DNA from: Candidatus Latescibacterota bacterium
GTDB taxonomy: Bacteria; Latescibacterota; UBA2968; UBA8231
Direction: 5' to 3'
DNA: 64,000 nt
Assembly: GCA_965221775.1 (NCBI GenBank)
Contig: CBDCSU010000005.1
Coordinates: 352,001-416,000 of the forward strand
A program made the position numbers and the translations under genes. Below are positions 1 through 56,111 of this stretch, piece after piece; position 1 is the first letter of the stretch, and every line of letters begins with the position of its first letter. The notes beneath the pieces were generated by a model. That model made no database searches. It was not told the origin of the DNA and worked only from the letters and a program-made list of their open reading frames with translations.

Positions 1-701
1 GCGGACGGGCCGGGCGGATCGGCGCCCGGAGCCTGGCCGTAGTAGTCTGCGGCGTACCAGTCCGCTACCCACTCATTCACGTTGCCGTGCATGTCGTGGA
101 GCCCCCACGGATTGGGACTTCGGGTAGCCACGGCCTGGGCGTGGCGCCTTCCCGCGTCCCAGGTGTTGCCCGTGTGCCAGGCGTAGTCACCGAGGATCGA
201 AGGGTCGTCGCCGAAGGACCAGCGCGTCGTGGTCCCGCCCCGACAGGCGTACTCCCACTCCGCCTCGGTAGGGAGACGGTAGAGATCGGCACCGGCCAGG
301 GCGTTCAGCCGTTCCACGAATCCCTGCACCTCGTCCCAGGAGACATTCACCGCCGGGTATTCCGGCCCCTCCTCCACGAAGTCCAGACCCGCCCAGGGGC
401 GGCTGCCCATGACCGCCTCCCACTGGGCCTGGGTGATCTCCGTGCGCCCCAGATGGAAGGGCCGGGTGATCCTCACCTCCCTGAGGGGGCTCTCGTCGGC
501 GTCCCTCCCCGGCTCGGTAACCGGCGAGCCCCTGAGAAAAACGCCCGAGTCGATCCGCACGAATTCCATCTCCAGGCCCCCGGGCAGCTCCGCCACCAGG
601 GCGGGGCGGCTGCCCCCGCCCGCTGAATCCTCCTCCTGCGCACACCCCAGGCCGAGGGCTCCCGTGGCCAGCACGGCCATCTGCCTTGCCACCGAGGGCA
701 T
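1..701 (-). CDS. Formylglycine-generating enzyme (FGE-sulfatase/SUMF1) domain lipoprotein, 3' end beyond the window edge
   Basis: Not in the ORF track because no stop falls inside the window. Manual translation from ATG 701 gives MPSVARQMAVLATGALGLGC (lipobox-like)...MEFVRIDSGVFLRGS...TEITQAQW...YPAVNVSWDEV...YRLPTEAEWEYACRGG...PNPWGLHDMHGNVNEWVADWY, the hallmark FGE-sulfatase motifs. It starts 3 nt after the upstream stop. Confidence 0.9.
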   Translation of the reverse strand, partial: MPSVARQMAVLATGALGLGCAQEEDSAGGGSRPALVAELPGGLEMEFVRIDSGVFLRGSPVTEPGRDADESPLREVRITRPFHLGRTEITQAQWEAVMGSRPWAGLDFVEEGPEYPAVNVSWDEVQGFVERLNALAGADLYRLPTEAEWEYACRGGTTTRWSFGDDPSILGDYAWHTGNTWDAGRRHAQAVATRSPNPWGLHDMHGNVNEWVADWYAADYYGQAPGADPPGPS

Positions 702-704
702 GGC

Positions 705-1952
705 TCAGAAGGCGGTCTCGGCGCGTGTGTCCATGAACTGGAGGGTGCAGTCCACGGTGACCCGCGCCGACAGCCCCTGCAGGACCTGCGAAACCAGACC
801 CGAAGCCGGCCGGCCGCCGGGCGGGCCCGTTCCGGCCGTGTCCGCCGCAGCTCCCTCTCCCCTCATGGGGCCGCCGGAGGGGCGGAAGCGCCAGGCGCGC
901 ATCCGGGCCGCCATGCACCCACCCACCGCCTCGCTGACCACCGTCGAGGAAATCACCTCCGCCTCGGCGACCGTGCCGGGAGGCAGGATCACGAATCTGA
1001 CCGATACCTCCCCTTCCGAGGCCCTCCCGGCAAGGGACTCGCGGGCAAAGCACTCGTTGAGCTCGTCCAGGCGAGACTTGATGTGGGCCTCGACGGCCGT
1101 CACGTCCCGGGTGATGTCACCCGTCACGTTGCCGACCACTCGAGTGCCGGGACTCAACTCCGCGCGCGACACCTCCCTGGAGACGGACTGACGCTGCTCC
1201 TGGTACTCCGCCACCTCGATCCGACGGTCGAAGTCGAAGCCGATGTCGATCGTCTCCAGCGGTTTGCCGAAGGTGTTGAACTTGAGGACGAAGTCCCTCA
1301 GGTTGAGACGGACGCCCTCGACGTCGGAGTCGAGTGGATCGAAGACGATGAACCCCCCGTACTCCTCGCCCCGGAAGATCCGCTCGCCCACGCCGTAGTT
1401 GTTGGTCCGAACCAGCCCCATGCGCATGTTGAAACGGTAGTACTCGTTGCCGCTGGGTCCCCGGAGACTCCGGTAGTAGGACTCGAAGTTTCTCGTCGAC
1501 GAACCGGCCAGGACCCCGTAGGGCTCCAGGAGCTCTCCCGGCCGGTCGGTGGTCAGGAACGACCGCAGCGGCTGCAGCTCGACCTTGGCGAAGGAGTAGT
1601 TGTGCACGGTGACCCGGAAGACGGTGAAGCGGTTGCGCACGTAGCCGACGGCCGGGTCGATGTAGTCTCCGTAGGTGTACGGATTCGTCGAGTACTCTCC
1701 CTCGCTGGACTCGGCCGGGAAGAGGTCGTTCAACTCCTGGTCGGTCATGTGCTCCACGTCGATCCGCAGGCCCTCCAGCCCGAAGGAGACCGTGCCCCCC
1801 TCTCCGACGGAGAAGCTGTCTCCCTGCTCCCCGCGCGGGGAGAGGGAGGAGGTCCGCTGGTAGATCGGCGGGTAGATGACGCTGCAACCGAGAAGCGCGG
1901 GGATGAGGAGGGCCAGCAGTGGCGCCGGGAGGCCTCGCCAGAGGTTTCTCAT
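705..1952 (-). CDS. Lipoprotein with C-terminal TonB-C-like (AgmX/PglI C-terminal) domain
   Basis: Signal peptide with lipobox LLGC. The C-terminal segment (IKSRLDELNECFARE...GEVSVRFVILPPGTVAEAEVISST...VGGCMAARMRAWRF) fits the AgmX/PglI/TonB-C pattern with its Cys pair. The N-terminal domain was not recognised. Confidence 0.75.
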   Translation of the reverse strand: MRNLWRGLPAPLLALLIPALLGCSVIYPPIYQRTSSLSPRGEQGDSFSVGEGGTVSFGLEGLRIDVEHMTDQELNDLFPAESSEGEYSTNPYTYGDYIDPAVGYVRNRFTVFRVTVHNYSFAKVELQPLRSFLTTDRPGELLEPYGVLAGSSTRNFESYYRSLRGPSGNEYYRFNMRMGLVRTNNYGVGERIFRGEEYGGFIVFDPLDSDVEGVRLNLRDFVLKFNTFGKPLETIDIGFDFDRRIEVAEYQEQRQSVSREVSRAELSPGTRVVGNVTGDITRDVTAVEAHIKSRLDELNECFARESLAGRASEGEVSVRFVILPPGTVAEAEVISSTVVSEAVGGCMAARMRAWRFRPSGGPMRGEGAAADTAGTGPPGGRPASGLVSQVLQGLSARVTVDCTLQFMDTRAETAF

Positions 1953-1989
1953 GGTCGTTGAAGCACCCCTCTTCGAGAAGGCCGGGTCA

Positions 1990-3216
1990 TCAGCGGCCGG
2001 CCTGGTTGTAGAAGTCGATCTGCTGCTGGGCGATGGAGCCCTTCTGGGTGAGGGCGAAGACCACGAGGTTCACTCCGAGCTTGAGCTGGGGCTCGTTCTC
2101 CGTCTCCCGTTCCCAGATCGCTCCGTAGCCCTTGTCCGAGTAGACGGCCACCAGCCGGTCACGGAGGTAGATGCCCTCCAGCCAGTAGGAAGGCCGGCGG
2201 GTAGCGGCGTACTGGTTGGAGGCGTTGATCACCTCCCCGCCCAGCGGCGGGCCGCCGTCGAAATCGAAGAAGACGTGGTAGATGGGGTTGTCGTCCCGCA
2301 GCGGCACGAAGCGCGCGTCCCGCCCCAGGGCCTGCTTGAACATCGCCTTCATCGAGGCCTCGGCCGGGCCGTACTCCAGACGCGGAGCGTCGTTGTCCGC
2401 CAGCACGAAGCCGCCGTTGCGCAGGTACTTCCCCAGGTTGGCCGCCTCGTGCTTGGTCAGCTCGAAGGCCGACCGGGTGGTGATGTAGACGAAGGGGGCC
2501 TTGAAGAGGGCCTGGGAGTCGAGGTACATCTGCTCGTCCACCTTGGCCTCGATCCGGGTCCAGTTGTTGATCCAGCGGGCCAGCTGGAGCAGCGCCCGGG
2601 GCCGGGACGGCTCGAGGATCGTCCCCCAGGCGCGGGCCAGGTAGACGAAGCCGGTGACGTTGGTCTTGTCCGTGGGATCCTGGATCACCATTCCCTTGTA
2701 CCGGCCGGTGTTGATGGCCGACAGGTCCAGGAACTCCGCCTGCATGTCGATCCGTCTCTCGGGCTCCTTCATGCTGGCGATGCTGACCGCCTCGAAGCGG
2801 GGCATGGCCACCACGGCGTCGCCCAGGCCGGTGCCCGCGGCAACGGTGAACTCCGCGCTTCCCCCGGTCCGGCTCCACATGCGCGTGCCCACGGGCATGC
2901 CCGCCCTCGCCATGCGCCGTCCGCTCACCGTGGTGGTGGTGCGGTCGCCGCTCGAGCGGACCACGGGGGTGCCTTCGGGGACGGCCTCCTTCCGGAAGGC
3001 GAACTCGCGGGTCAGCTGCGGCTCGGGAAGGAAGAAGGGGGTCTTCTCCTCGTCCCACTCGATGCGGGCCACCACCTCCTCCTCTTCCTCCTCCCGCGGC
3101 ACCAGGTAGAGGAAGAGCACCAGGGCGTGAAGCGCCGCCGAGGCCGCCAGGCCGGCATGGAAGAGGCGGCGATGGCGGGACAGGACCCGCAGGGACCCGC
3201 TCTGTCGAGGACTCAC
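1990..3216 (-). CDS. DUF4159 domain protein with N-terminal TonB-like membrane anchor
   Basis: TM helix with SAALHALVLFLY followed by an acidic linker. C-terminal DUF4159 motifs: PFVYIT, LGKYLRNGGFVLADN, PIYHVFFDF, LEGIYLRDRLVAVYSDKGYG, LKLGVNLVVFALT. GTGA overlap with the TPR gene stop. Confidence 0.85.
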   Translation of the reverse strand: MSPRQSGSLRVLSRHRRLFHAGLAASAALHALVLFLYLVPREEEEEEVVARIEWDEEKTPFFLPEPQLTREFAFRKEAVPEGTPVVRSSGDRTTTTVSGRRMARAGMPVGTRMWSRTGGSAEFTVAAGTGLGDAVVAMPRFEAVSIASMKEPERRIDMQAEFLDLSAINTGRYKGMVIQDPTDKTNVTGFVYLARAWGTILEPSRPRALLQLARWINNWTRIEAKVDEQMYLDSQALFKAPFVYITTRSAFELTKHEAANLGKYLRNGGFVLADNDAPRLEYGPAEASMKAMFKQALGRDARFVPLRDDNPIYHVFFDFDGGPPLGGEVINASNQYAATRRPSYWLEGIYLRDRLVAVYSDKGYGAIWERETENEPQLKLGVNLVVFALTQKGSIAQQQIDFYNQAGR

Positions 3217-6200
3217 AGGTGCTTCCTCTCGATGGTGTGGCGCCGCCGTTCGCAGAACTCCATCATCCGCGGCGTCACGCGGTCATTGCCCTGCTCTCCC
3301 TGGGTGATGACGTCGCTGAAGGCATCCACGGCCTTCTGCCATTCCCCGAGCTGCTGAAAGCACACCCCCACGTTCATCTTGGCCGCCAGGCCGCTCGAGG
3401 TCATCGGGTACTGCCGCCACACGGCTTCGAGGGGGCCGATGACCTGGCGGACCAGGTCGCGGTCGTCTTCCGCGAGGGCCCGGTTGAAGGCCTCCATGGC
3501 GCCGTTGTACTCCCGGAAGGCGACCGCCTCCTGCACCTCCTGCAGCACCCCTTCGGCGGCGCGGGCGGCCTCGGATTCCGGGAAGTCGGCCCGGAGCCCC
3601 TGGAACAACTCGTAGGCCCGGCCGTAGTCGCCGGCGTTGTAGCTCATCTCGGCCAAGGTGTACCTGGCCGTGGCGAGGTGGCGCCCCGCCGGGTAGCGGG
3701 TCAGGTACTCCTCCATGGCCTGCCGCACCGCGGCCCGGTGCTCTGCCGAAGGTTCCGCCGGCGCCTCGTTGAGCAGACACCAGGCGATGTTGTAGAGCGC
3801 CTCCTCGGCCAGCCCGGTCTCCGGGAAGCGCCGGATCACCTGGCGGTAGGTCTGCCGCGCTTCCCCGTAGGCCCCCGAGTTGTAGCGGCTCTCGGCCAGG
3901 CGGAAGAGGGCATCGGCGGCCACATCCAGATCCGGGTACTGGTCGACGACGCCCGCGAAGTAGGGGATGGCCCTGCTGAAGCGGGCCTCGTTGAAGTGCG
4001 CATAGCCGAGGTAGTACCGGGCATACCCGGCATTCGGATGTCCGGGGTCCTCGGCCAGCATCCGGATGAAGCTGGCCGCGGCCAGGTCGGCACGGTCGGT
4101 CTGGAGCGCTGCCAGACCCCGCAGGAACAGGAGGTCGGCGGCGTAGAAGCCCCCCGGGAAGGCGCGCAGACCCGCGTCGGCCCGGTCGAAGGCGCGCTCG
4201 AACTCCTCGATCCGCACCGCCGACTCGGCCTGCAGGAACCAGGCCTTCTCGCGCAGGTGGTACGGCCGCTCTTCCGGGAGGGGCCCCTCCTTCAGATCCA
4301 GGCCGATGATCTCCTCGCAGGCGGCGGAGGCCTCGGCGTAGCGGCCCTGACGGTTGGCGATCTCCGCCTCCGCCAGCAGGTGCTCCGCGCGCTCCAGGGG
4401 ACCGGCCGCCGCGAGCGCCATCCGCCGGTAGATCTCCTGGGCCCGGTCGTACTCTCCGAGGTTGGCCCAGGCCGCCGCCAGGAGGCGCCGGGCCGCGGAG
4501 GACAGCTCCGGGTCGGTCCACTCCCGGTTCAGATCCTCCAGGGCCTCGGAGTACCGCTCCATGCGGAACAACAGCGAACCGCGGCTGTACGCAGCCCGCT
4601 CCCGCAGGTCGGGATCGCCCAGGCCGATGACCGCGGCGAAGTGCGCCAGGGCGGTTTCCTGCTCTCCCAGCTGCATTGAGGCGGAGGCGAGCAGGTAGTG
4701 GAGAGCCTGACTCTCGGGCCGGTCCTTCGCCTCCAGGCCTTGCTGCAGCACCGCCACCGCCTGGCGGTGCTCTCCCTCCTGCACCAGGAGCTGCCCGGCC
4801 TCCAGGCGCGACCGGGCGAAGAGCTCCGCTTCCCTCCGCACGGCCAGCAGCTCCGCCAGGGCCCGCTCCTGGTTCCCCGCGTCCCTCTCGACGATCCCCA
4901 ACTCGAAGCGGGCCACATCCTCTTCGGGCTTGTCCTCCAGCTCGGCGATCACCGTGCGGTAGGTCTCCGCCGCCAGGGCGTGGTCGCCGCGGCCATGGTG
5001 GATCCGGGCGATCTGGAAGAGGGCGCTCTGGCGGTACCCTTCCGCGTTGGGGGCCTCGGCCACGCTTCCCAGGAAGACCAGGGCTTCGCCCACCTTGTCC
5101 TGCTGGTCCTGCAGCTGAATGGCCAATCCCAGGTTGAACCGCAACTCCACGTCGTAGGGGGATCCCGGGTACGCCGCCAGGGTGGCGCGCAACTCGCTCT
5201 CGGCGCGGCGATAGTAGTCCAGGCGCTCCTCTTCGGGTTGCCTGTCCGCCACGCGGAACCAGGCCCGGGCGACCTGCAGGGCCACGCCCTCGACGGCGAG
5301 GCCGGCCCGCGCGGCGGCGGCCTCGTAGTTCGTCCGGTAGACCTCGTACTCACGCACCGCCTCCTCGTAGTGCCCGGTCTCGAAGTAGCGGTTGGCCAGC
5401 AGGAGCTGCATGCGCGCCTTCTGCACGACATCGCCCGTCGCCTCGATGGCCTGGTGGTAGACGGCGACGACGGCGGCGAAGTCCCCCCGCCGGTAGTGCA
5501 TGTCCGCCTGGCGCAGGTACGCCTCTTCGGCGAGCCGCTGCTCCTCGGCAAAGCGTGAGGCCACCAGCTGGAAGGACTCCTCGGCCTGGGCGTACTGCCC
5601 CGTCTTCTCGTGGCACTCGCCGATGCGGATGAGGGCCTTGGCCGCCAGGTCGAGAGCGGTCTCGTCGACGAGGCCGGCGATCTTCTGCCGCTTCATCCGC
5701 AGGATCTCGCGTTCGGACATCTCCTCGATGCGCTGGGAATCGACCAGCCGCTGGTAGAAGGGGATGGCCTCCCGGTAGTTCTCCAGGGCGAAGTGGCCCT
5801 CGCCGATCTGGAACAGGGCCCGGCTGCCGCGGTAGCCGCCGGGAAAGCGCTCAACGAGGCGCTCGAAGGCGGCTATGCTGTTGGCATAGTCCTCCATGTC
5901 ATAGTGGGCCCACCCGACATCGTACATCGCCTGTTCGACATAGGCGCTCGACGGATAGCGCTCGATGAGGAGGCCCGCCCCCTCGATGGTGCGCTCGTAA
6001 TCCTGAATGGCGTACCAGCAGGCCACGGCGCGGCTGCGGGCCAGGGCCTTCAGCGCCGGGACGGTGGACAGCTCCTCGGTCTCCACGAAGGCGTCGGCCG
6101 CCTCTCCGAAGAGGGACCTGGCGCGGTCCTGGTACCGGGAACGCCTTGCCGGGTCGCGGCTCCTGGCGGCGCTGGCGAGGGCCTCCTCGGCGGACTTGAA

Positions 6201-6527
6201 GTGCGCATTCCCGACCTGGTACCGGGCCACCTCCTGCAGCGGCGCCGTGATCTGGCCGACGGTCACCTCCACGTCCCGCATCTGCAGGAAACGGCTCTGG
6301 CTCCGGATGATGCGCCGATAGCCCTCGATCGCCTGGTCGTAGGCTCCCGAGGCGTAGAACTTCTGCGCGTCGGCGAAGGTCGCCTGCATCTCCGGGGCCG
6401 TGGGCACCGACCGGGTGACGGCGATCATCGCCGTCAGGCCTACCAGGGTGATCAACGCGACCATGGTCCGTTCCCTCCGACCGGGCGCGGTCGGTACGCG
6501 CCCCGCCTCGGCTTCCTCCGTCGACAC
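3213..6527 (-). CDS. Large tetratricopeptide repeat protein (BamD/CpoB-like TPR units), membrane-anchored or secreted
   Basis: Many TPR pairs ending in 'ERYPSS', 'ERFPGG', 'DQYPDL', 'RRFPET' followed by 'A(L/M)(Y/F)'. N-terminal hydrophobic segment. The start may be ATG 6464. Confidence 0.9.
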   Translation of the reverse strand: MSTEEAEAGRVPTAPGRRERTMVALITLVGLTAMIAVTRSVPTAPEMQATFADAQKFYASGAYDQAIEGYRRIIRSQSRFLQMRDVEVTVGQITAPLQEVARYQVGNAHFKSAEEALASAARSRDPARRSRYQDRARSLFGEAADAFVETEELSTVPALKALARSRAVACWYAIQDYERTIEGAGLLIERYPSSAYVEQAMYDVGWAHYDMEDYANSIAAFERLVERFPGGYRGSRALFQIGEGHFALENYREAIPFYQRLVDSQRIEEMSEREILRMKRQKIAGLVDETALDLAAKALIRIGECHEKTGQYAQAEESFQLVASRFAEEQRLAEEAYLRQADMHYRRGDFAAVVAVYHQAIEATGDVVQKARMQLLLANRYFETGHYEEAVREYEVYRTNYEAAAARAGLAVEGVALQVARAWFRVADRQPEEERLDYYRRAESELRATLAAYPGSPYDVELRFNLGLAIQLQDQQDKVGEALVFLGSVAEAPNAEGYRQSALFQIARIHHGRGDHALAAETYRTVIAELEDKPEEDVARFELGIVERDAGNQERALAELLAVRREAELFARSRLEAGQLLVQEGEHRQAVAVLQQGLEAKDRPESQALHYLLASASMQLGEQETALAHFAAVIGLGDPDLRERAAYSRGSLLFRMERYSEALEDLNREWTDPELSSAARRLLAAAWANLGEYDRAQEIYRRMALAAAGPLERAEHLLAEAEIANRQGRYAEASAACEEIIGLDLKEGPLPEERPYHLREKAWFLQAESAVRIEEFERAFDRADAGLRAFPGGFYAADLLFLRGLAALQTDRADLAAASFIRMLAEDPGHPNAGYARYYLGYAHFNEARFSRAIPYFAGVVDQYPDLDVAADALFRLAESRYNSGAYGEARQTYRQVIRRFPETGLAEEALYNIAWCLLNEAPAEPSAEHRAAVRQAMEEYLTRYPAGRHLATARYTLAEMSYNAGDYGRAYELFQGLRADFPESEAARAAEGVLQEVQEAVAFREYNGAMEAFNRALAEDDRDLVRQVIGPLEAVWRQYPMTSSGLAAKMNVGVCFQQLGEWQKAVDAFSDVITQGEQGNDRVTPRMMEFCERRRHTIERKHL

Positions 6528-6540
6528 TGGAAGGCAGATC

Positions 6541-12062: not shown

Positions 12063-12064
12063 GG

Positions 12065-14893: not shown

Positions 14894-14920
14894 GTCAAGC
14901 CAGACAGGAAGCGAAGCTTC

Positions 14921-16987
14921 TCAGTAAGCCACCCCTACGACGCCGGTGGCGGTTTCGGTCCCGGCGTCGAGCTCCACCTGGACGCGGTAGAGGTAGTTGC
15001 CCGGCGGCACCAGCCGGCCTTCGTCGTCCCTGCCGTCCCAGTATCCGGGGACGATACCCCGTGCCCCGCTGACGAGGCGCAGGTAGACGCCGGCCGCCAG
15101 GGGGGACGGCTTCAGATCGCGCACCAGAGCGCCCCGGAGGTCGAAGATGCGCAGTCCCAGGTCGCGGGGCGTGTCTACCTTGCTGAGAATGAACTCGATG
15201 ACGGTGTCATCGTTGATGTCGTCACCGTTGGGTGTGAACACGGAGGGATTGGCGCGGACGTTCGACAAGGCGTCCTCGGGAGAGGTCGTCGGGACCACCG
15301 CCCAGGAGAAGGGCTCGCCCGTGCTCTCGTCCATACCGAGGCTCTCGGCCACGTTGACGGGGTTGTCCGACCCGGGGCTGAAGAGAAAGACGCGGAACTC
15401 GTGGCTGTTCGCGTGGGAGCGGGCCCGAAAGGGTATCTGCAGTTGGTCGATGTCGCGCACCGGCTCGGAGAAGACGAGCTCAAGCGCATCCTGCGTGGAG
15501 ATCCAGCTCTCCAGGATCCCCTGGAGCTGACCGTCGTCGACCAGTCGGGCCTCGCTGGGGACGGCGACGCGGAGCCGCTCGATCCCCGAGTCTTCGGGGG
15601 AAAAGGCCAGGTCCAGGGTGCACACGAAGAGGGTGTCGGCACCCATGGACACGCGGTTGGGCGAGATCCTGGAATGGGCGCCGGAAACGGCGATCTCCTC
15701 GGTCGTGTAGTCCAGCTCCAGGCTGTGCAATGCCGGCGTGCGCCGCTGGTCCCTGGACTCCAGGGCGACCCGGTATTGGAGCCAGGCTCCCGGCTCCGAG
15801 GCGGGGAACCAGACCTCTCCACTCGACAGAGGGGTGCTCCACCCCCGCTTGGGATCCTCGAAGTCCGACGGGGAATTCCCCGTCCGGAACTGGACGAAGA
15901 GATCCGTGCGCTCGGGGATCTCGGCATCCCAGCGCACGCGGCCGAAATTCTTGGCCTGGTCGGGCGCGCCCAGCGAGAGAGGATCGGAGAGGTATGTGCC
16001 CTCGTCCGTGTACCCGTCTCCGTAGACCTCCACCTCGGCCACCTTGGGAGGGCTCACGGAGTTGATGTCGACGATCACGACTCGCACGTACCGGGTCCAC
16101 ACCGGCGTAAAGCGCACCTCGGTCCAGTCGAACTTCTCGATATCGTGGATGACGCCCACCTCGGTCCAGCGGACCCGGTCGTCGCTGACCTGCACCGAGT
16201 AGCCCCTCAACGAATTCTCCTCCAGCTGGCCGGGATTGCTCCCCCTGGTGATGACGCGGACGCTGCTGACGTTGCGCCTGACCTGCAGATCCACACTGGC
16301 CGAGTAGTTGAGAGCAGAGGTGGGCGGGTCCCAGGAGGTGTTCAGCTTGCCGTCCACGACTTCCACACGGTTGCTCGGCTTGTCGAGGGCCAGGTTCTGG
16401 CCGCGAATCTGACTGAGAACCAGGCTTCCCTGCCGGGCGCCCACGTCGATCCCCGACGGGAACCCGGAGACGATCTCGATCTCCGGGTCGAGCAGATCCT
16501 GGATCCGGGCGCGCTCGACCGCCCCCTGCTGCACGGCCTGCCACGCCGGATCGTCCTCCGGATCGGCCGTCGTCCACTCGAGACCCTGCTGCTCGAAGGA
16601 GGTCCAGTACCACCCCTGCACCACCTGGTTCGTGGTCGTCTCGATCCGGTACTCGTCGGTGACCACCGCGGCGATGAGGCCGTTGCCGGCGCCGGCGCCG
16701 CGGTTGACGACCTTCACGGCGATGTCATTCCCCGCATTCCCGTCCTGCACCTGGACGGCATAGACCTGCATCCGGGTACCGAGAGAGTCCCCGCCGAGGA
16801 GCACGCCGTTGAAGTAGACCTCGTAGCTGTCCACGGCGGCCACGTGGAGCCTGGCCTCGAGAGCGGCGTCGGAAACGAAGTTGGAACGGAAGTAGGTGGT
16901 GCTACGCCACGAACTCTGCTCCCAGGTCTGCGCGGTGACCGCAGCCGTGCAGCAGAGCACGATGAGGGAGGTGAAGCGGATAGACAT
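14921..16987 (-). CDS. Secreted F5/8 type C (discoidin/CBM32-like) domain protein with CHU_C (T9SS type B-like) / FlgD-Ig C-terminal domain
   Basis: Signal MSIRFTSLIVLCCTAAVTA. Discoidin pattern VDLQ...YSVQVSDD...WT...RYVRVVI...VAEVEVYG. C-terminus NPSVFTPNGDDIND...LRIFDLRGALVRDL...WDGRDDEGRLVPPGNYLYRV. Confidence 0.85.
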   Translation of the reverse strand: MSIRFTSLIVLCCTAAVTAQTWEQSSWRSTTYFRSNFVSDAALEARLHVAAVDSYEVYFNGVLLGGDSLGTRMQVYAVQVQDGNAGNDIAVKVVNRGAGAGNGLIAAVVTDEYRIETTTNQVVQGWYWTSFEQQGLEWTTADPEDDPAWQAVQQGAVERARIQDLLDPEIEIVSGFPSGIDVGARQGSLVLSQIRGQNLALDKPSNRVEVVDGKLNTSWDPPTSALNYSASVDLQVRRNVSSVRVITRGSNPGQLEENSLRGYSVQVSDDRVRWTEVGVIHDIEKFDWTEVRFTPVWTRYVRVVIVDINSVSPPKVAEVEVYGDGYTDEGTYLSDPLSLGAPDQAKNFGRVRWDAEIPERTDLFVQFRTGNSPSDFEDPKRGWSTPLSSGEVWFPASEPGAWLQYRVALESRDQRRTPALHSLELDYTTEEIAVSGAHSRISPNRVSMGADTLFVCTLDLAFSPEDSGIERLRVAVPSEARLVDDGQLQGILESWISTQDALELVFSEPVRDIDQLQIPFRARSHANSHEFRVFLFSPGSDNPVNVAESLGMDESTGEPFSWAVVPTTSPEDALSNVRANPSVFTPNGDDINDDTVIEFILSKVDTPRDLGLRIFDLRGALVRDLKPSPLAAGVYLRLVSGARGIVPGYWDGRDDEGRLVPPGNYLYRVQVELDAGTETATGVVGVAY

Positions 16988-17090
16988 CAGGCGGTTTCCC
17001 TTGCCGATAGAAACAAATGGGTGGCCGGCTTGCACCGGCCACCCATTCCGAGTCAGGCTGCTCCCAAACAGGGACGCCCGCTGACCGCTT

Positions 17091-18938
17091 TTACTTGAGC
17101 AGAGTCACGCGCTTGCTCTCGGCAAAACTCCCCGCGACCATCCGCAGGACATAGACCCCGCTGCCAACCTTGACGCCCTGGTAGTCCGTGCCGTCCCAGG
17201 TGACGTGGTAGGAGCCGGAGTCCAGCACTTGATCCACCAGCCTGGCCACTTCCTGGCCGGCCACGTTGTGCACGGTCAGTGTCACCGACTCGTTGATCTC
17301 GGGAACGGCGATGCGGACGGTCGTCTCGGGGTTGAAGGGGTTCGGGAACGCATCACCCAGTGCGAAAGCGCCGGGCGTGGCCCCACCTTCCAACTCCGTG
17401 ACGTCCGTGGTCAGGCCGTCGCCCACCTTCGCCCGTGCGATGTCCATGGGGAAGTGTGCCAGGTACGGACCGGCTCCCACGCCGATGTAGAGACCGTCGG
17501 CCTCGTTGTCGTTGTCCATCAGCATGGCGATGCCGCCGAGTGAGCCCGGGGGCATGTGGATTCCCACGTTGAGCTTGAACAGACCGAAGCCGTCGGGTCC
17601 CATGACCGTGGCCCATTCAGGCGCCTCCCAGCCGCCGATGAGGCTGATACCCCAGCGGGTGGCCAGTATGCTGATCGGAATGTTCGAGGGGATCCCCAGG
17701 GCCTCCCTCTCCTCCCTGGTGTAGAAGTCCAGGTAGAAGTCGCCGTTCTGGTTTTTCCAGACCAGGTTGAGGTCCTTGTCGGTCTTGGTCGGACCCGCTC
17801 CTTCCCGGCCGAGGTAACTGGTCCCGTAGTAGCCCGTGTCGTCGACGTCGAACCCCGCAACTGCCTTGAAGTTCCTCGGGGCGCCTTCGTCGTTGAAGAC
17901 CTGGGGGAAGTAGTCCAGGAAGGAGAGGACCTCCACCAGCTCTCCGGTGGCGCGGTCGAATATCTGCACCGCCGGACCCGGCGAACCGTAGGGCTCCACG
18001 TGGTCGGCGACGGTGGCGTAGAGCATGCCGTCGTCGGCCACCCAGGGATGGTGGCGGGCGTTGGCCACCATGGTGGTGATGCCGCGGACCTCCATGGCGA
18101 TGTAGCCGCCGTCGGCGTTCTCCCAGCTCTCGTCCAGCAGCGCCGTGCCCGCCTCGCGATCGATGATCGCCCGGTACAGGCCGCCCGGCGGGTTCTGGAA
18201 GCGGATGACGTAGGCCACGCCATCTTCCGACGGGTCCATCTGCAGATAGCCGACATCCTTCCAGTCATTCCCGGTCTCGCCCGGGACCGCGTTGACCCAC
18301 GGGATGGCGAAGGTCTCGAAGGCCTCGGGGTTGGCGAGCAGGTCGGTGCCCATCTCGCTCACCCTGATGTTCCAGACGCCCTCGATCTGCTGGGGGAACC
18401 AGATCTCCGGAGGACTCGCCTGGTCGTTGACCACCGAGTTCTGCCAAGGGGCCATGGTACCGCCCGCGTAGGTGGGCTTGGAGTCGACGTCGATGGCGAA
18501 CAGGTAGGTCCTGTAGGTGCCGGAGCCGACGGTCGCTCCCGTGTAATCCGTGCCGTCCCAGGTGATGGTGTTCGAGCCCGCGTCGAACCGGTCTCCGGCA
18601 CTGATGTAGACGAGGGTATCCAGACCGGCGGCGCGGATCAGGCTCTGTTCGATGCCTCCCACCCCGAAAGGCTCTCCGCCGTACTGGGGATTGGCATCGA
18701 GGGTGTACACGGCAAGCCAGACCATGGCCGAGGGAACGCCTTCGATGGTGAAGGGGATCTCGACCGCGGAACCGTCAAAGGTGTGGTTCACGTCCTGCGT
18801 CGAGAGCTTCAGCACCGTCGGCGCGCCGCCCTTCCAGTGGACGTCAAAGCCCTGCCAGTCGGGGTTGGACTGGCCGAAGTCGTTTGCCGCGGCCGTCCCG
18901 AGGAGTCCGGAACACAACAGCAGGATCGCCTTCTTCAT
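17091..18938 (-). CDS. Secreted protein with N-terminal FlgD-Ig domain and C-terminal T9SS type A-like / FlgD-Ig sorting domain
   Basis: AAGGAG RBS before ATG 18938 and signal MKKAILLLCSGLLGTAAA. C-terminus FALGDAFPNPFNPET...VHNVAGQEVARLV...WDGTD..G..VGSGVY...SKRVTLLK. A second WDGTDYTG..VGSGTY motif lies near the N-terminus. Confidence 0.9.
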   Translation of the reverse strand: MKKAILLLCSGLLGTAAANDFGQSNPDWQGFDVHWKGGAPTVLKLSTQDVNHTFDGSAVEIPFTIEGVPSAMVWLAVYTLDANPQYGGEPFGVGGIEQSLIRAAGLDTLVYISAGDRFDAGSNTITWDGTDYTGATVGSGTYRTYLFAIDVDSKPTYAGGTMAPWQNSVVNDQASPPEIWFPQQIEGVWNIRVSEMGTDLLANPEAFETFAIPWVNAVPGETGNDWKDVGYLQMDPSEDGVAYVIRFQNPPGGLYRAIIDREAGTALLDESWENADGGYIAMEVRGITTMVANARHHPWVADDGMLYATVADHVEPYGSPGPAVQIFDRATGELVEVLSFLDYFPQVFNDEGAPRNFKAVAGFDVDDTGYYGTSYLGREGAGPTKTDKDLNLVWKNQNGDFYLDFYTREEREALGIPSNIPISILATRWGISLIGGWEAPEWATVMGPDGFGLFKLNVGIHMPPGSLGGIAMLMDNDNEADGLYIGVGAGPYLAHFPMDIARAKVGDGLTTDVTELEGGATPGAFALGDAFPNPFNPETTVRIAVPEINESVTLTVHNVAGQEVARLVDQVLDSGSYHVTWDGTDYQGVKVGSGVYVLRMVAGSFAESKRVTLLK

Positions 18939-19094
18939 GGGATACTCCTTTTCTCCGCCCCGGACTCCCGTCTGGCCCGGTGTGGCGTGAGTTCGTGGCC
19001 TGCCTCGTCCTGCCGGGTCTCGGCAGGGCCCAAGAGGCCACAATGATCGGCAACTCAACCCCTTTGGGGGTTCGTCCATTCGTTCACTAGAAGA

Positions 19095-19123
19095 CTGTTA
19101 CTGCTCTTTCGGATGGAAGTCAA
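19095..19123 (-). promoter_or_regulatory. Candidate sigma70-type promoter for the leftward envelope operon
   Basis: Minus strand TTGACT-17 nt-TAACAG, preceded by a T-rich tract. The -10 match is weak. Confidence 0.4.
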
Positions 19124-19195
19124 GGAAAAAGCACGGCCCCCCACGCCCCTTCACCCCGGGGAGAGAGGAGCTATTGGTTGCCACTTACGGACCGC

Positions 19196-19672
19196 TTATG
19201 GGCCGCTCTGGGCCTCCTCCTCGCCGGCCTTGATCCTCACGGGGTCGGACCCGACCGAGATGAACCGTGTCCGCGGGTTGAGGGTGAGCTTGTCGTACGG
19301 CCCGTAGGGCCGCCAGCGCTTGGCCCCCGGAGTCGTCATCGTCTGGGGCTCGGCGTCGGGCCGTTCCGCGCCGATCATCCGAAGGGCCTCGTCCTCGTCG
19401 AAGGGGTCCATCTCTTCGAACCTGTAGCTGACATAGCTCGCCTCCCCCTCCTTAATTACCACGAAGACCCGGACACCCGTGCCAAGCACATCCTGCCACA
19501 GCAGATGCCCGAACCTCCCCTCCGAGGCCTGGACCCTCTGCCAGGGGTCTCCCCAGCGCTCGATGAGATCGGCCTCGCTCCTGCCGAGAACCTCATGAAC
19601 GTCCAGCGGCGGCGGCTCCCGGGAGCAGGACGCCCCGAGAACCAGGACTGAGATGACCAGCGCGGCTCTCAT
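19196..19672 (-). CDS. Small lipoprotein, possibly BamE/SmpA-like fold
   Basis: This is the 3' part of track ORF 19196..22126, with the real start at ATG 19672: MRAALVISVLVLGASC (lipobox-like), then VLGRSEADLIERWGDP, which resembles the G.(S/T)..(D/E)....(L/W)G.P motif of SmpA/BamE-type domains. Confidence 0.7.
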   Translation of the reverse strand: MRAALVISVLVLGASCSREPPPLDVHEVLGRSEADLIERWGDPWQRVQASEGRFGHLLWQDVLGTGVRVFVVIKEGEASYVSYRFEEMDPFDEDEALRMIGAERPDAEPQTMTTPGAKRWRPYGPYDKLTLNPRTRFISVGSDPVRIKAGEEEAQSGP

Positions 19673-19739
19673 TCGGATCCGATCCTTGTCTCGTGCTCGG
19701 TTGAAGCCCGGCACGTCCCGGCCCCGGGCAGGGAGCCGC

Positions 19740-19767
19740 AAAATAGAGGGGGGGCTTTCCCGGTCAA
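19740..19767 (-). promoter_or_regulatory. Candidate sigma70-type promoter for the small lipoprotein gene
   Basis: Minus strand TTGACC-16 nt-TATTTT, with a 7-bp homopolymer (19748-19754) in the spacer. Confidence 0.4.
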
Positions 19768-19819
19768 GCAGCCGAATCCGACGGCTTGCCGATCGGTGGT
19801 GATTTCCTCTCCGGCAGGG

Positions 19820-22624
19820 ATGGTGCGTATGCGGCCCTGGATCTGGATGCTCCTCCTCTTGCTGACGGGCGGGTTCCGGGCGCTGGCGTCCGAGCCGGTC
19901 CTGGGGCTCCCGCAGGACGTCTCCGGCCGCTCCTTCCTCTACCGGTCGGATCCCTCCTACCTCAACTACGGTTTCGAGGACTACACGCTGCCGGAGTTCA
20001 CCCGGTTCTCGCGGCGCAACTACTACGGCCCCCTGGGCAACTTCCTGATCCAGGGCTACGACGTGTACGAGTGGCGGGAGACCCGGGCCTCGACGGCCAC
20101 GGCCTGGCACAAGTCGCTGCGCACCCTCCCCCGCTTCGGGCGTTTCGAGCGCAACCTGGTGGCGCGGGAGTCGCACGCGCGGTGGGCGGCGAGCCTGATC
20201 TACGGGGAGGAGATCCGCACGCTGTTCACGCCGCTGACCCTGGCCCTGCCGGGCTACGACGGCATCCGCCTCGACAGCCAGGTGGGCAACACGCGGGTGG
20301 CCGTCATCGGACAGCGGTACGTGGGTCACTTCACCGCCGGCCAGTACGGCGAAGGGCCCGTCTGGACCAACTGGGACTTCACCGAGCACATGCGCAGCTC
20401 GGCGATGCTCCTCGGGGCCCACGGCGACGTCGAGCTGGGGGCGCTGACCCTGGGGGCGACGGGGGTGAACTTCCACATCTTCGACGCCGAGCAGGAGAGC
20501 TTCGTGCTGCGCGGCGGGCTGCAGGCCGAGCAGGTGCTGCCGGTGGGCTACCTGGTGCGGCTCTCCGACGATTCGCCGGAGGACCTGCAGGCCGGCGCCG
20601 TGGTCGCGGAGGTGCGTCTGAAGGTCAACGGCGAGGAGCGCCCGGACCTGCGGCCCTTCCTGGCCCGCATCAACGGCCAGAATCCCACCGCGGTGGGATC
20701 CACCAGCCGGCTCACGGGCCAGTTCCGGCGGGTGGCCTACCTGGACCGGGGCACGCGCTTCGCAGACGTGCTCTACCTGCGCGATCACCTGCGGGGGGAG
20801 GACGTGTCGGACAAGGTCAACCTGGAGGAGTTGCTGCGCTGGGTGGAGGCCCTGCCGGACGTGCCCGGGCTGCGGGCCGACGGCCACGAGCAGATCATCG
20901 CCTTCTTCGACGTGAGCCAGGAGCCGTTCATCCGCCAGGTGCAGGTGGAGGCGCTGGTGGGCAACGACTACCGCGTCGAGGTGCTGCCCCTCTACGTCTC
21001 GGCCCCGGCGGTGGAGAACTACGAGTTCCACTACCGCGTGGGCGGCAATTCCCTGGCGCCGGGGCAAGGCTACTTCGTGGAAAAGGAGACGCCGGGGGTG
21101 ACCGCCGCACGCCGCTCCCCGGGCAACGTTCAGGACATGTCGAACCTGGAGTGGGTGCGCCTGGATCTGGGGGAGTGGACGGGCCGGGCCCTGTGGGGTC
21201 TCAACGGGGCCTGGGAGTGGGGCGACGCCGAGGTGCGCTGGGAATACGCCCGCAGCGTGGAGTACCGCGAGTTTCCCGACGGCCGGCCGGGGTACCGCGA
21301 GGACCGGGAACTCAGGGGCATCCGCCGCTGGAACGGGGCGCGCAGCAGCACCGACGCCGGCGCGTACTACGTGAACGGACGGTGGCGCCGGGGCCGGGTG
21401 GAGGTGGGGGGGGAGCTGTTCTCCATCGCCGAGGAGTACGACAGCGGCTTCGTGCAGGACAACGACGACGACGACCGCTATCCCGACAGCGGCCCCGGAC
21501 ACCGCCCCATGAGTGCGGACACGGGCACCCCCTTCGACCCGGACGGGGTGTTCCCGGGCAACGACCGGGACAACGACCGGATTCCGGACACCAACCGCAA
21601 CGGCAACCGGGTGCCCGATTACCTGGAGGCGTTCCTGCTGTACGACGTGGAGCCGCTGGCCTATGCCTATGGACGGGACGCCAACAACAACGGCATCCCC
21701 GACCACCGCGAGGACGACCTGGACTCGGACTACCCCTACGAGGTGGACCAGCGCGGGCACCACGCCTTCGGGACGCTGCATCTGCCCGGCGGGTTTCGCC
21801 TCACGGCGGGCCGGCTGCGGGCGGCGGGGATCGCCAGCGGCGCCCGCAACGAGAGCACCTACGGCGTCGCCACCCTTCGCCGCCACAGTCACCGGTGGGG
21901 CTCGGTCCGGGCCGAGACCCGCCTCCGGCGGCTCCACGACGACATCGTCGACAACTACGTCGTCTTCGACGAGGTGTGGGGCCGCTATCCCAACCGGGAG
22001 CGGACCTATGCCCCCACCACGGTGCTGGATCTGCTTGAGTATCGCGACAGCCTGGACCGGCAGCACTACGTCGAAGCCGACCTCAGCCCCGCCCCCGGAC
22101 TGCGCCTCGGCGGCAACCTGCGCCATGCGCTCAACGAGCAGCGCGAGGCCACCCTGGCCGATGGCAGCGATCAGGCCGCCGACACGATCACCCGGCTGAC
22201 GATGGTGGCCCGGGCCGAGTATGTGTGGGAGCTGTCGGAGCGGTGGCGCGTGATCGCCCAGGCCAAGGCGCTGCGGCTGCGCCGGACTCGGGAGAGCCTG
22301 GCGGTGGACCTGGCCAACGAGTGGACTTTCGTGCCGATCCTGAAGACCTCATGTCACATCACGCCGCGCACCCACCTGTGGCTCGGCACCCAGGGGCTGC
22401 CGGGCCTGCCCCTGCGCAAGGAGGATCTGGCCGACGGCCGCGACAGCTACGAGGAGGTCGTTCGGGTGGTGCAGCTGACGAACTGGTCTCCCTACTTCGG
22501 GTACGAAATCGCCACCAACCTGGGGGTGAAGTGGAGCCGGCGCCAATACGGAGATCCCGCACGGGAGAGGGACGATCTCGACATCACCTCCGCCTTCCTG
22601 CGCGTCCTCCTGGGATTCGAATAG
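19820..22624 (+). CDS. Uncharacterised large probable outer-membrane protein, paralog D (near-identical inverted copy of paralog A)
   Basis: Signal MVRMRPWIWMLLLLLTGGFRALA (ATG 19820 or 19829). From QDVSGRS onward it is colinear and mostly identical to 6541..9351, ending AFLRVLLGFE. Confidence 0.85.
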   Translation: MVRMRPWIWMLLLLLTGGFRALASEPVLGLPQDVSGRSFLYRSDPSYLNYGFEDYTLPEFTRFSRRNYYGPLGNFLIQGYDVYEWRETRASTATAWHKSLRTLPRFGRFERNLVARESHARWAASLIYGEEIRTLFTPLTLALPGYDGIRLDSQVGNTRVAVIGQRYVGHFTAGQYGEGPVWTNWDFTEHMRSSAMLLGAHGDVELGALTLGATGVNFHIFDAEQESFVLRGGLQAEQVLPVGYLVRLSDDSPEDLQAGAVVAEVRLKVNGEERPDLRPFLARINGQNPTAVGSTSRLTGQFRRVAYLDRGTRFADVLYLRDHLRGEDVSDKVNLEELLRWVEALPDVPGLRADGHEQIIAFFDVSQEPFIRQVQVEALVGNDYRVEVLPLYVSAPAVENYEFHYRVGGNSLAPGQGYFVEKETPGVTAARRSPGNVQDMSNLEWVRLDLGEWTGRALWGLNGAWEWGDAEVRWEYARSVEYREFPDGRPGYREDRELRGIRRWNGARSSTDAGAYYVNGRWRRGRVEVGGELFSIAEEYDSGFVQDNDDDDRYPDSGPGHRPMSADTGTPFDPDGVFPGNDRDNDRIPDTNRNGNRVPDYLEAFLLYDVEPLAYAYGRDANNNGIPDHREDDLDSDYPYEVDQRGHHAFGTLHLPGGFRLTAGRLRAAGIASGARNESTYGVATLRRHSHRWGSVRAETRLRRLHDDIVDNYVVFDEVWGRYPNRERTYAPTTVLDLLEYRDSLDRQHYVEADLSPAPGLRLGGNLRHALNEQREATLADGSDQAADTITRLTMVARAEYVWELSERWRVIAQAKALRLRRTRESLAVDLANEWTFVPILKTSCHITPRTHLWLGTQGLPGLPLRKEDLADGRDSYEEVVRVVQLTNWSPYFGYEIATNLGVKWSRRQYGDPARERDDLDITSAFLRVLLGFE
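19913..22620 (+). repeat. Right arm of a ~2.7-kb inverted repeat (mature coding region of paralog D)
   Basis: See the left arm. The shadow ORF translations in the track are also identical over long stretches, which indicates identity at all three codon positions. Confidence 0.95.
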
Positions 22625-36494: not shown

Positions 36495-36971
36495 GGCTCT
36501 GAAGGAGGGGCGAGGCGACCACGTCCTGCAGGCGCCCGGGTGGTCGGAGGGGCCTGAGAAACCCCTGGGGTACTGCCGGCGGGGGTGGCGATCGAACATG
36601 GGGGGCTCCCTGTTCGGGGATGGTGGATCACCCGCCCGTGGGGAGACGTGCGCCGCGCATTCTACGGCAATCCCCCGGCATCCACAACTACCGGAGGGGC
36701 CGGGACTTCCACCCCCCCTGCGCCAGGAGCGCCGGAATCCCGGCAGGATCCCCGCTCGAGGCGATTCCCGTCGGCCCTGCCGACGACAGTGACGAGGAAG
36801 GGCCCGGATGCGGGCGGACCAACGCCCGTGACGGGTACGTGTCTTGAGGTTTCCGAGATTCCTGGGAACGGCCCCGCCGCCCGGGGCACCGCCGAACGAC
36901 GGGCACGGAGCCCCGCGGCATCCCTCGGTCCGCGCGGCTCGCCGCTCTGGGACTCGAGCGGCTTCCCGGCG

Positions 36972-48560: not shown

Positions 48561-48685
48561 ACGGGCGAGGCCTGCGGTCCGCAATCGGCGGAAGGTTGGA
48601 AGTCCAAGCCCATCAGTCAGTTACGATCGCTCGGCAGAAGCCCGCCGCCTTGCTCCGCAGCCGTCTCCGGGGTAACTTGGCCCCC

Positions 48686-50939: not shown

Positions 50940-51057
50940 GGCCGCCGTCAGGGCCGCGAGCCGGGAGAGGCCGCGCGCTCCCGCCGAAGAAGGGTGCCGC
51001 CCGAAGACCTGCCCGCTCCCGATGGCAGAGTTGGCCGGCCGTCGAAGGTCCCGGACC

Positions 51058-52700: not shown

Positions 52701-52718
52701 TCGTCCCCGCGAAGCTGA

Positions 52719-52749
52719 TTGACGGAGGTGCAGGGCCAATATATATAGT
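52719..52749 (+). promoter_or_regulatory. Sigma70-type promoter for coxGSLM
   Basis: TTGACG at 52719, then TATATA (17-nt spacer) or TATAGT (19-nt spacer), in the short AT-rich divergent gap. Confidence 0.6.
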
Positions 52750-52759
52750 CCGCCCTCCC

Positions 52760-53191: not shown

Positions 53192-53243
53192 TGGTCCGTC
53201 GGCGACGCGCCATCCCCTCTCCCCCTCCAAGGAGGTAGCGATC

Positions 53244-53708: not shown

Positions 53709-53719
53709 CGGAGGAAACC

Positions 53720-56098
<2,379 letters not shown>

Positions 56099-56111
56099 GG
56101 AGGAGGGAGAG

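Follow-up and report, generated by a model that had tools for sequence, protein, structure and literature searches.

Introduction

[quoted passage not shown] The Agl-Glt machinery of Myxococcus xanthus is described, again in the accessible sections, as combining three outer-membrane barrels, tetratricopeptide repeat (TPR) proteins and TonB-C domains with one TolQ and two TolR proteins (PMC11761067, PMC3169522). Here we describe a gene cluster from Latescibacterota that shares components with both. It lies in a 64,000-nucleotide stretch of DNA, called the window throughout, which corresponds to positions 352001-416000 of contig C5 (CBDCSU010000005.1) of genome G000 (GCA_965221775.1; ~69% G+C, 5.36 Mb in 6 contigs, completeness 96.8%, contamination 7.75%). 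We put the probability at about one half that the cluster is an envelope-spanning carrier apparatus, driven by the proton motive force, for surface lectins delivered by T9SS.

A literature search, with supplementary files outside its scope, found no paper on type IX secretion or T9SS in Latescibacterota or Latescibacteria, and a search for DUF4159, a domain of one of the cluster's proteins, returned one paper only, the Pfam database paper. The phylum's genomic survey of 2015 notes porins and TonB uptake, and the accessible part of it makes no mention of the present system (PMC4454575).

An earlier note on the window had proposed an undescribed machine with a parts list resembling those of the Por, Gld and Glt systems. 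The synteny, the exbBD genes and the linkage to cargo that we report below favour this proposal in part, and the FGE-sulfatase-fold lipoprotein of the parts list turns out to be an accessory and not a core part. As the note had suspected, no curated cut-off makes the proteins orthologues of Por, Gld or Glt components, and every equivalog-level membership test failed. The combination of a stator, giant predicted outer-membrane proteins and secreted sugar-binding surface proteins appears not to have been described so far.

Results

A conserved cluster of cargo, paralogue and motor genes

The region covers most of a ~33-kb cluster that is conserved in Latescibacterota. All nine co-oriented minus-strand genes that had been placed between 18938 and base 3 are present, with the tight spacing originally read from the sequence (4-nt overlaps at 9348-9351 and 3213-3216; gaps of 2 nt at 12062/12065 and 3 nt at 701/705), as are the small lipoprotein and the divergent fourth paralogue. 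The gene set of the genome comprises 4296 calls from a purpose-built GC3-based caller, and two starts were corrected, that of the CHU_C gene to a likely 16987 and that of the third paralogue (position 1) to a likely ~14677. The features are listed below, with reference to further copies on contigs C6 and C3 and in genomes G019 and G006 of the phylum; CTD stands for C-terminal domain and aa for amino acids.

3..701, minus strand: FGE-sulfatase-fold lipoprotein with an LGLGC lipobox; N-terminal 233 of 279 aa, the gene crossing the window edge
705..1952, minus strand: LipoN lipoprotein with an LLGC lipobox; unnamed N-terminal domain of ~230 aa and an AgmX/PglI-type TonB-C-like tail
1990..3216, minus strand: bitopic DUF4159 membrane protein; N-terminal transmembrane helix with a His, charged Pro-containing linker and periplasmic DUF4159
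3213..6527, minus strand: giant TPR protein of 1104 aa; N-terminal hydrophobic anchor or signal, CpoB/YbgF-like and BamD-like TPR units
6541..9351, minus strand: paralogue at position 3, 936 aa, with a signal peptide; no Pfam or NCBIfam match
9348..12062, minus strand: paralogue at position 2, 904 aa; in a clade with the position-2 genes of C6, G019 and G006
12065..14677, minus strand: paralogue at position 1, ~870 aa, start uncertain (up to 14893); adjoins the type-B-like CTD gene, in a clade with the position-1 genes of C3, C6, G019 and G006
14921..16987, minus strand: secreted discoidin (F5/8 type C) protein (PF22633, PF00754) with a type-B-like CTD (CHU_C; FTPNGDDINDD ... VAY)
17015..17048, minus strand: 15-pair stem with a T-rich tail in the space from the type A CTD gene to the discoidin gene; may act as terminator or attenuator
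17091..18938, minus strand: secreted 615-aa protein with a type A CTD (Por_Secre_tail/FlgD-Ig-like; TIGR04183, FlgD_ig)
~19196..19672, minus strand: small lipoprotein with an LGASC lipobox, preceding the cluster; no Pfam or NCBIfam match
19796..22624, plus strand: fourth paralogue, 934-942 aa; divergent, a recent copy of the position-3 gene

The four paralogues are genuine relatives, with 86% identity between 19796-22624 and 6541-9351 and 32-33% identity of the remaining two to 19796-22624. The fourth is kept at the same location in same-genus genomes. The cluster is as tight as had been stated, but the window edge is not its end, as nine more co-oriented genes lie beyond the left edge. There, on the same strand and with small gaps, the rest of the FGE gene gives way to genes for a GDSL-like protein (998 aa), a solute-binding protein of the sugar type and two ATP-binding cassette (ABC) permeases, and then to those for ExbB, two ExbD proteins, a protein of 273 aa and a TamB-like one of 1454 aa. 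From the DUF6785 gene, on the other side of the cluster, to the TamB-like gene, 21 genes, the FGE gene included, are collinear in a second species of the genus at 70-94% aa identity.

Further copies are found within the same genome. The copy at C6:6993-28727 begins with a type A CTD and a CHU_C protein, three paralogues and a TPR giant, after which come DUF5683-like, small Fn3-like lipoprotein, DUF4159 and short LipoN genes, one for a 308-aa protein and ExbB-ExbD-ExbD, and the short contig C3 holds the beginning of a third copy. The type A CTD protein is kept in all three (paralogues C6:6993-8834 and C3:5476-7371), and the small lipoprotein has a paralogue at 35% identity in the equivalent position on contig C3. 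A diverged set at C5:283-306k contains two paralogue/CTD pairs, LipoN, a TPR giant, ExbB, ExbD and DUF4159, together with a member of the PorV/PorQ family that scored 85.4 bits, under the cut-off of 90.

The order of CTD gene, two to three paralogues, TPR giant, ExbB/ExbD, DUF4159 and lipoprotein was also found in other families of the phylum, from 45 to 69% G+C. Because gene order recurs across families, the conserved synteny that the earlier note had looked to for support is now in evidence. Genome G006 (45% G+C) has a discoidin-CHU_C protein, two paralogues, TPR giant, DUF5683-like protein, small lipoprotein, ExbB, ExbD, ExbD, DUF4159 and a 398-aa LipoN; G019 has three paralogues, TPR giant, two CTD proteins, ExbB, DUF4159 and LipoN; and G015 has a type-B-like CTD protein, a PorV/PorQ-like protein, three paralogues, TPR giant, ExbB and LipoN. 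PorV/PorQ-family genes were found inside two such clusters, and in G003 about ten DUF4159 genes lie immediately beside paralogues. Many of 76 related loci from named records of other genomes show the order as well; among the 76, at least three paralogues were present in 24, a TPR giant in 22, DUF4159 in 21 and LipoN in 18.

The FGE gene was present in 2 of these 76 loci and is therefore an accessory, non-core gene. Its fold is real (PF03781, 120.3 bits for the part in the window and 148.6 bits for the full 279 aa) but it is not a core part of the machine, and its scores with GldK (TIGR03525, 63.4 against 350) and GldJ (38.6 against 458) lie below the cut-offs. The best GldK-like gene of the genome (100.9 bits) lies outside the cluster.

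Paralogues and type-B-like surface proteins occur together

The discoidin protein scored 54.5 bits with PF22633 and 50.4 bits with PF00754. The call of its CTD as type B (CHU_C) is borderline, as CHU_C (PF13585) was reached marginally (27.4 against 27) but TIGR04131 was not (19.6 against 35). The type A CTD of the 615-aa protein was reproduced (TIGR04183, 27.2 against 23; FlgD_ig, 62.3 bits). We took TPNGDGxND to be the hallmark of a type B CTD, and a CTD was called type-B-like where the motif [ST]P[ND][GN]D.xN[DE] occurred within the last 140 residues.

By this definition 24 of the 112 T9SS-type CTD proteins of genome G000 bear the motif; their tails align well and share a VAY end. A motif-bearing CTD gene lies at most three genes away from every paralogue (20/20), ten of which are directly adjacent to one, and a paralogue lies at most three genes away from 21/24 motif-bearing CTD genes as against 6/88 other CTD genes. 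These counts back the analogy between the paralogues, as predicted barrels, and PorP/SprF, in which cargo is encoded beside its barrel.

The two also co-occur across the phylum. The paralogue family was found in 94/151 genomes, including 63/63 of the window's own family (f1), 0/30 of f2 and 0/19 of f3. A strong type-B-like CTD match (best E <= 1e-28, a threshold picked after the score gap had been seen) was found in 92/94 genomes with paralogues as against 1/57 of the others (G030), the remaining 56 reaching only 1e-12 to 1e-17 with the CTD profile. The exceptions among the genomes with paralogues were G003 and G044 (68% complete). As related genomes are not independent, we also give the tally by family: paralogues and strong CTD matches are both present in nine and both missing in three, one family mostly lacks the two and one has paralogues only.

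Among 20 further type-B-like cargo proteins, CHU_C scored >=27 in nine, six carry discoidin/galactose-binding domains and none a catalytic Pfam domain. Genome G006 has an orthologous discoidin architecture upstream of its paralogues, and related clusters contain CBM9-like proteins and beta-helix (pectate-lyase-like) CTD proteins. A separate secreted family of ~300 aa, which has no Pfam match and ~17 paralogues in the genome (e.g., C5:290619-291539), includes several members that directly adjoin type-B-like CTD genes or paralogues (C6:264392, C5:553838, C6:2581711, C6:1364009, C5:173559).

The sequencing runs containing the locus are labelled as sponge or marine metagenomes. Metatranscriptome contigs from two studies span the full type A CTD gene (17080-19074); in three runs they end at 19064-19074, 126-136 nt upstream of its ATG, and RNA contigs also stop near the hairpin at 17015-17048 (at 17080 and 17180), with only short contigs elsewhere. 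This weakly hints at separate transcription of the type A CTD gene; the gaps and depths of the RNA contigs over the cluster are uninformative on expression level. An Rfam scan of window positions 1-23000 gave no match.

The ~900-aa paralogue family

The family had been taken to have four members, which is too few by far, as genome G000 holds 20 full-length members and one fragment at a contig end. Relatives have up to ~100 first-look candidates per genome, and when 1.84 billion cluster representatives were searched with a profile, 1124 matched at E <= 1e-3, 779 of them at E <= 1e-10; all named homologues are annotated 'hypothetical protein'. The possibility that the four paralogues were a local curiosity was ruled out by the 20 genomic copies and the phylum-wide spread. 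Several family-bearing records (loci L089, L098, L101, L137, L149 and others) were labelled Gemmatimonadaceae, Gemmatimonadetes, Nitrospinota or Myxococcales by their submitters, and these loci resemble the Latescibacterota ones.

The family has no sequence match in Pfam, NCBIfam or the PDB, the last searched with a profile. Conservation is highest in an acidic block, DNDDxD ... DxDxDGxxD ... NNNG. Members have signal peptides and a C-terminal end of the form F.RV.LG[FYW][DE], with an aromatic residue within the final five in 78 of 114. Sub-threshold matches to SlpA_C (PF21620) were found in 14 of 51 members (E <= 0.1; best 27.3 against 35) at about residues 430-550; the window paralogue itself gave no PF21620 match. 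Together, the signal peptides, the C-terminal F.RV.LG[FYW] motif and the SlpA_C matches suggest an outer-membrane barrel. Compared by hhalign with the PorV/PorQ proteins (13 sequences) and TonB-dependent receptors (28) of the genome itself and with ten SprA proteins, the family gave probabilities of at most 2.7%. A search for fusions, which is weak evidence, found no longer or fused forms. A home-made amphipathic beta-strand score was dropped because it did not separate known barrels from soluble controls.

In a tree of 36 paralogues (FastTree only, with long branches and unequal composition flagged by the tool), the core-cluster genes fall into three well-supported clades by position in the cluster, not by genome. 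These clades, next to cargo, middle and next to the TPR gene, join the window, C6 and C3 copies with G019 and G006 and so extend over three families, the position-3 clade placing 6541-9351 with the C6 copy and G019. Paralogues of simple cargo modules form a separate clade, and G015 and G003 triplicated theirs independently. The conserved triple suggests a hetero-oligomer. An SlpA-type trimer would fit three conserved paralogues.

Motor and candidate coupling proteins

The exbBD genes predicted in the earlier note exist, and three of the four ExbB operons of the genome lie within these clusters, a count made with a profile built on the three cluster ExbB proteins. The three are in or beside TPR-DUF4159-LipoN clusters and the fourth heads a separate ExbB-ExbD-ExbD set. 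MotA_ExbB with two ExbD genes follows the cluster downstream, beyond the window edge, and is found in the C6 copy too, and the third cluster has ExbB with one ExbD. The transmembrane Asp of ExbD is kept in 6/7 aligned ExbD proteins.

The TonB-C call for the lipoprotein is borne out by NF033768 (AgmX/PglI; 53.6 bits against 40, residues 284-360); the tail falls below the cut-off of Pfam TonB_C (18.8 against 24.6). Its weak PDB matches (E 0.06-0.8) are TonB C-terminal domains in ten cases out of ten, and the LipoN tail of G006 reached 40.4 bits with NF033768. The N-terminal domain has eight paralogues in the genome, mostly near paralogue/CTD modules. The 119 LipoN homologues comprise long forms with the TonB-C tail and short forms without it, and some long ones are named 'TonB family' or 'AgmX/PglI C-terminal domain-containing'. 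Phylum-wide LipoN tallies are left out here, since a search with the domain as a lone protein overlooked genomes such as G006, in which the profile recovers it, and gave frames containing stops. In P0363, a natural 486-aa protein, the LipoN domain (41% identity, E 7e-42) is fused to a DUF4159 domain (E 2e-8).

The DUF4159 protein (PF13709, 97.7 bits) has the N-terminal membrane anchor ascribed to it and is a candidate force transducer. In long DUF4159 proteins, the His of the N-terminal helix is present in 6/8 aligned sequences and P66 is invariant within the basic Pro-containing linker. In all five paralogue-free genomes searched, DUF4159 was found only as a short, anchor-less form of ~230 aa. 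A PDB sequence search with DUF4159 gave no match.

The TPR giant was recognised correctly, with 181.9 bits over five stretches for TIGR02795 and 112 bits for TIGR03302, and comes after the paralogues in other phylum families too. It scored 52.7 with PorW/SprE against a cut-off of 250, and its 17 NCBIfam matches are to generic, CpoB, BamD and PorW TPR models, with no Glt model among them.

Type IX secretion in the genome and the phylum

A search of the genome for T9SS genes, as the earlier note had advised, found sprA and a PorV-like gene but no homologues of PorL, PorM or PorN. SprA is encoded in a single 2192-aa frame (TIGR04189, 612 bits summed) and is present in 146/151 phylum genomes. Two PorU genes exceed the cut-off, a full-length PorV-like gene adjoins PorU (147.9 bits, under the cut-off of 250), two genes are PorZ-like (164.5 bits, under 260) and the PorV/PorQ family has 13 members. 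The searches that follow had no positive control. PorP/SprF gave no PF11751 match in the genome and exceeded the TIGR03519 cut-off in 0/151 genomes; GldM was not found in the genome and was marginal in 1/151; GldL was not found in the one genome searched (0/1); and GldN, the hub of the known system, was found in 0/9 genus genomes. These four are given as 'not found' and not as 'absent', because the models gave no clear signal in any searched genome.

Two of the five DUF4159 genes (C6:208368-211246 and C4:1166498-1176886) are short forms, one beside a PorZ-like gene and the other near a PorU/PorZ-like pair. As these two also neighbour such genes, all five DUF4159 genes are close to T9SS-related genes.

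Comparison with described systems

The cluster shares with the PorP/SprF loci of Bacteroidota, such as SprF-SprB and PorP-PG1035-PorE, a surface protein with a TPNGDGxND-type CTD encoded beside a (here predicted) outer-membrane partner, many such pairs per genome, adhesin- or lectin-like cargo, a TPR protein nearby, joined in some clusters by an FGE-fold lipoprotein, and SprA, PorU and PorV-like proteins (PMC12618676, PMC9143113, in their accessible text). However, the partner here is ~900 aa as opposed to ~300 aa and matches neither PF11751 nor TIGR03519, and the CTD is a hybrid with FlgD-Ig features that remains under the TIGR04131 cut-off. The twin Cys of SprF described in the available part of PMC12635249 has no conserved counterpart in the paralogues, the motor is ExbB/ExbD and not GldLM, and no co-variation of CTD and partner was seen.

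Similarities to the Myxococcus xanthus Agl-Glt core (GltD/E/G/C and AglRQS) include one TolQ/ExbB-like and two TolR/ExbD-like genes, a ~1100-aa TPR protein, AgmX/PglI-type TonB-C, three (here predicted) outer-membrane proteins, a surface adhesin and duplication of the cluster within a genome (PMC11761067, PMC3169522, accessible sections). In contrast, only an 80-aa tail fits a Glt model, the GltG score is 38.4 against 650, and TonB-C is on a lipoprotein and not on a bitopic FHA protein, the bitopic protein here having DUF4159. The outer-membrane proteins belong to an unrelated, far larger family, the adhesins are T9SS cargo as opposed to a VWA lipoprotein, and MglA, MreB and cytoplasmic parts were not seen here.

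With TonB-ExbB-ExbD and SusC-SusD the cluster has in common a stator driven by the proton motive force, a TonB-C-like domain, an expanded pair of large (predicted) outer-membrane protein and surface glycan-binding protein, and an ABC sugar importer linked in one cluster copy. It differs in that receptor and plug domains are lacking and that profile comparison with the receptors of the genome itself shows no similarity; its surface partner is T9SS cargo and not a SusD lipoprotein, and its candidate transducer ends in DUF4159. With Tol-Pal it shares CpoB-like units, but TolB, Pal and the OmpA domain were not found in the cluster genes scanned. Deinococcus SlpA (PF21620) is the sole recurrent Pfam similarity and is of comparable size, but all matches are under the gathering score and cover only ~110 residues, with no SLH or coiled-coil part.

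Neighbouring genes

A DUF6785/DUF6784 membrane protein (437 and 434 bits) adjoins both full cluster copies (window 22630-26626; C6:1833-3782), in the window beside a DUF4838 protein; a second DUF4838 gene is at 34473-36599. At window positions 30957-34406 lies the gene of a 1149-aa FG-GAP protein, which weakly matches a lambda-carrageenase beta-propeller, and FG-GAP/ASPIC proteins flank other cluster copies too. Further away, at 47487-56972, lies a molybdenum hydroxylase set (CoxSML/xanthine-dehydrogenase-type) with CoxG and 2Fe-2S, molybdopterin and FAD subunits, accompanied by XdhC, MobA-like, MoaA-like, AAA (MoxR-type) and VWA CoxE genes.

Discussion

If the cluster is the carrier apparatus proposed here, its three anciently diverged ~900-aa paralogues would sit in the outer membrane, probably as a hetero-oligomer, and would serve as dedicated partners of surface proteins with type-B-like CTDs and mostly lectin-like (discoidin) passengers. 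Export of the cargo would fall to the SprA/PorV/PorU type IX system of the genome, with the paralogue family taking the carrier and anchor role where no PorP/SprF was found. Each core cluster would supply its own ExbB/ExbD stator, which may act on the paralogues through the DUF4159 protein (with a TonB-like N-terminus and a different head), the TonB-C-tailed lipoprotein and the TPR scaffold, so that force or a conformational change would be transmitted to the cargo-bearing outer-membrane complex. All of these contacts, like the direction of energy flow, are put forward conditionally, and the physiological role may be the display, or the movement, of adhesins that bind glycans on the sponge matrix. 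In our best reading, its operation would resemble that of SprF-SprB on the Bacteroidota track or of Myxococcus Agl-Glt, with membership of neither.

Several observations weigh against this reading. The barrel fold is a prediction from signal peptides, a C-terminal motif and sub-threshold SlpA_C matches, the TonB-C domain is on a lipoprotein and not on a membrane-anchored transducer, and the GldL, GldM, GldN and PorP negatives come from searches that had no positive control. One of the two window-linked ExbD proteins (C5:344519-344962) has Asn in place of the transmembrane Asp. The stator of the window copy is five genes off, behind the FGE, GDSL-like and sugar ABC genes, a placement as compatible with uptake as with display. 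Genome G003 has paralogues and no strong type-B-like CTD. A Mantel test on 10 adjacent paralogue-CTD pairs found no co-variation (r = -0.09, p = 0.64), which is unlike the cognate specificity described for SprF-type carriers. Across the 76 loci, a strict-motif CTD gene lay within 6 kb in 16 and another CTD gene in 25, with ~30 having paralogues alone, in counts for which the motif is too strict for some relatives and tandem arrays displace neighbours beyond the 6-kb flank.

Glycan uptake is the main rival, and we consider it unlikely, if well worth keeping in view. The paralogues would then be the gated channels of a TonB-type nutrient importer like SusC/SusD, in which lectins capture glycans, the stator opens the channel and the ABC genes import the sugar. 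An importer would account for the presence of ExbB-ExbD-ExbD and a TonB-C-type domain in the same cluster as genes on one strand for a GDSL-like esterase, two permeases and a binding protein of the sugar type, an arrangement kept in the second species, as well as for the discoidin/galactose-binding passengers and the CBM9-like and beta-helix CTD proteins of related clusters. The tens of family copies per genome are like those of SusC in Bacteroidota, and the accessible text of the genomic survey describes the phylum as saccharolytic (PMC4454575). However, the paralogues have no match to the TonB-dependent receptor barrel (PF00593) or plug, and hhalign against the genome's own 28 TonB-dependent receptors gave a probability of 1.6%. 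The genome already has ~22 canonical receptors and the separate fourth ExbB-ExbD-ExbD set, most paralogue/CTD modules have no motor or transporter genes alongside, and neither the other cluster copies nor other families have the ABC genes.

It is improbable that the cluster is instead the missing energising module of T9SS, with ExbB/ExbD, DUF4159, the TPR giant and the lipoprotein replacing PorL, PorM, PorK, PorN and PorW and the paralogues as export partners. The distribution of SprA (146/151) as against GldM (1/151, marginal), GldL (0/1) and GldN (0/9) leaves a place for such a module in a genome with more than 100 CTD proteins, and 5/5 DUF4159 genes have T9SS-related genes nearby, in two cases with PorZ-like and PorU genes alongside; PorV/PorQ-family genes within two clusters and the weak PorW/SprE matches of the TPR giant (52.7 bits) point the same way. 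Yet families f2, f3 and f4 have SprA with paralogues in 0/51 genomes, the five f2/f3 genomes searched are without the long DUF4159 form, three cluster copies accompany a single SprA per genome, and the absence calls lack a positive control. As SprA-bearing families are without paralogues and, where searched, without long DUF4159, a general T9SS motor of the phylum is unlikely. We give very little weight to a Tol-Pal-like or biogenesis system, in which the stator, TPR giant and lipoprotein would tether or assemble large outer-membrane proteins with the help of SurA- and TamB-like genes, the adjacency of cargo reflecting co-regulation. The TIGR02795 (CpoB/YbgF) score of 181.9 bits in five stretches, the BamD-like matches, the TamB-like gene that closes the window's operon, the SurA-like genes after two clusters and the only recurrent Pfam hint, to SlpA, an outer-membrane-tethering barrel, are in its favour, but the cluster genes scanned contain no TolB, Pal or OmpA-like peptidoglycan-binding domain, and the strict genomic and phyletic link to type-B-like CTD proteins would be left unexplained.

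The carrier apparatus can be taken further, in a form that we regard as doubtful and offer as speculation. It would be a third, independently built proton-driven surface conveyor, next to the GldJKN track of Bacteroidota and myxobacterial Agl-Glt, in which the stator pulls a heterotrimer of giant outer-membrane proteins with its T9SS-delivered lectins by way of a DUF4159-headed TonB analogue and the TonB-C lipoprotein, moving or tensioning adhesins on the matrix of the host for gliding or grip in a sponge symbiont, and the same family would replace PorP/SprF as type B carrier outside Bacteroidota.

T9SS and its link to gliding are known almost solely from Bacteroidota. If the carrier apparatus is real, it would reveal how cargo is carried, and perhaps powered, outside that phylum, it would place DUF4159 in a functional context for the first time, and it would be a further case of the recruitment of Ton/Tol-type motors for surface machines. 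The cluster also names candidate surface lectins of an uncultured sponge symbiont.

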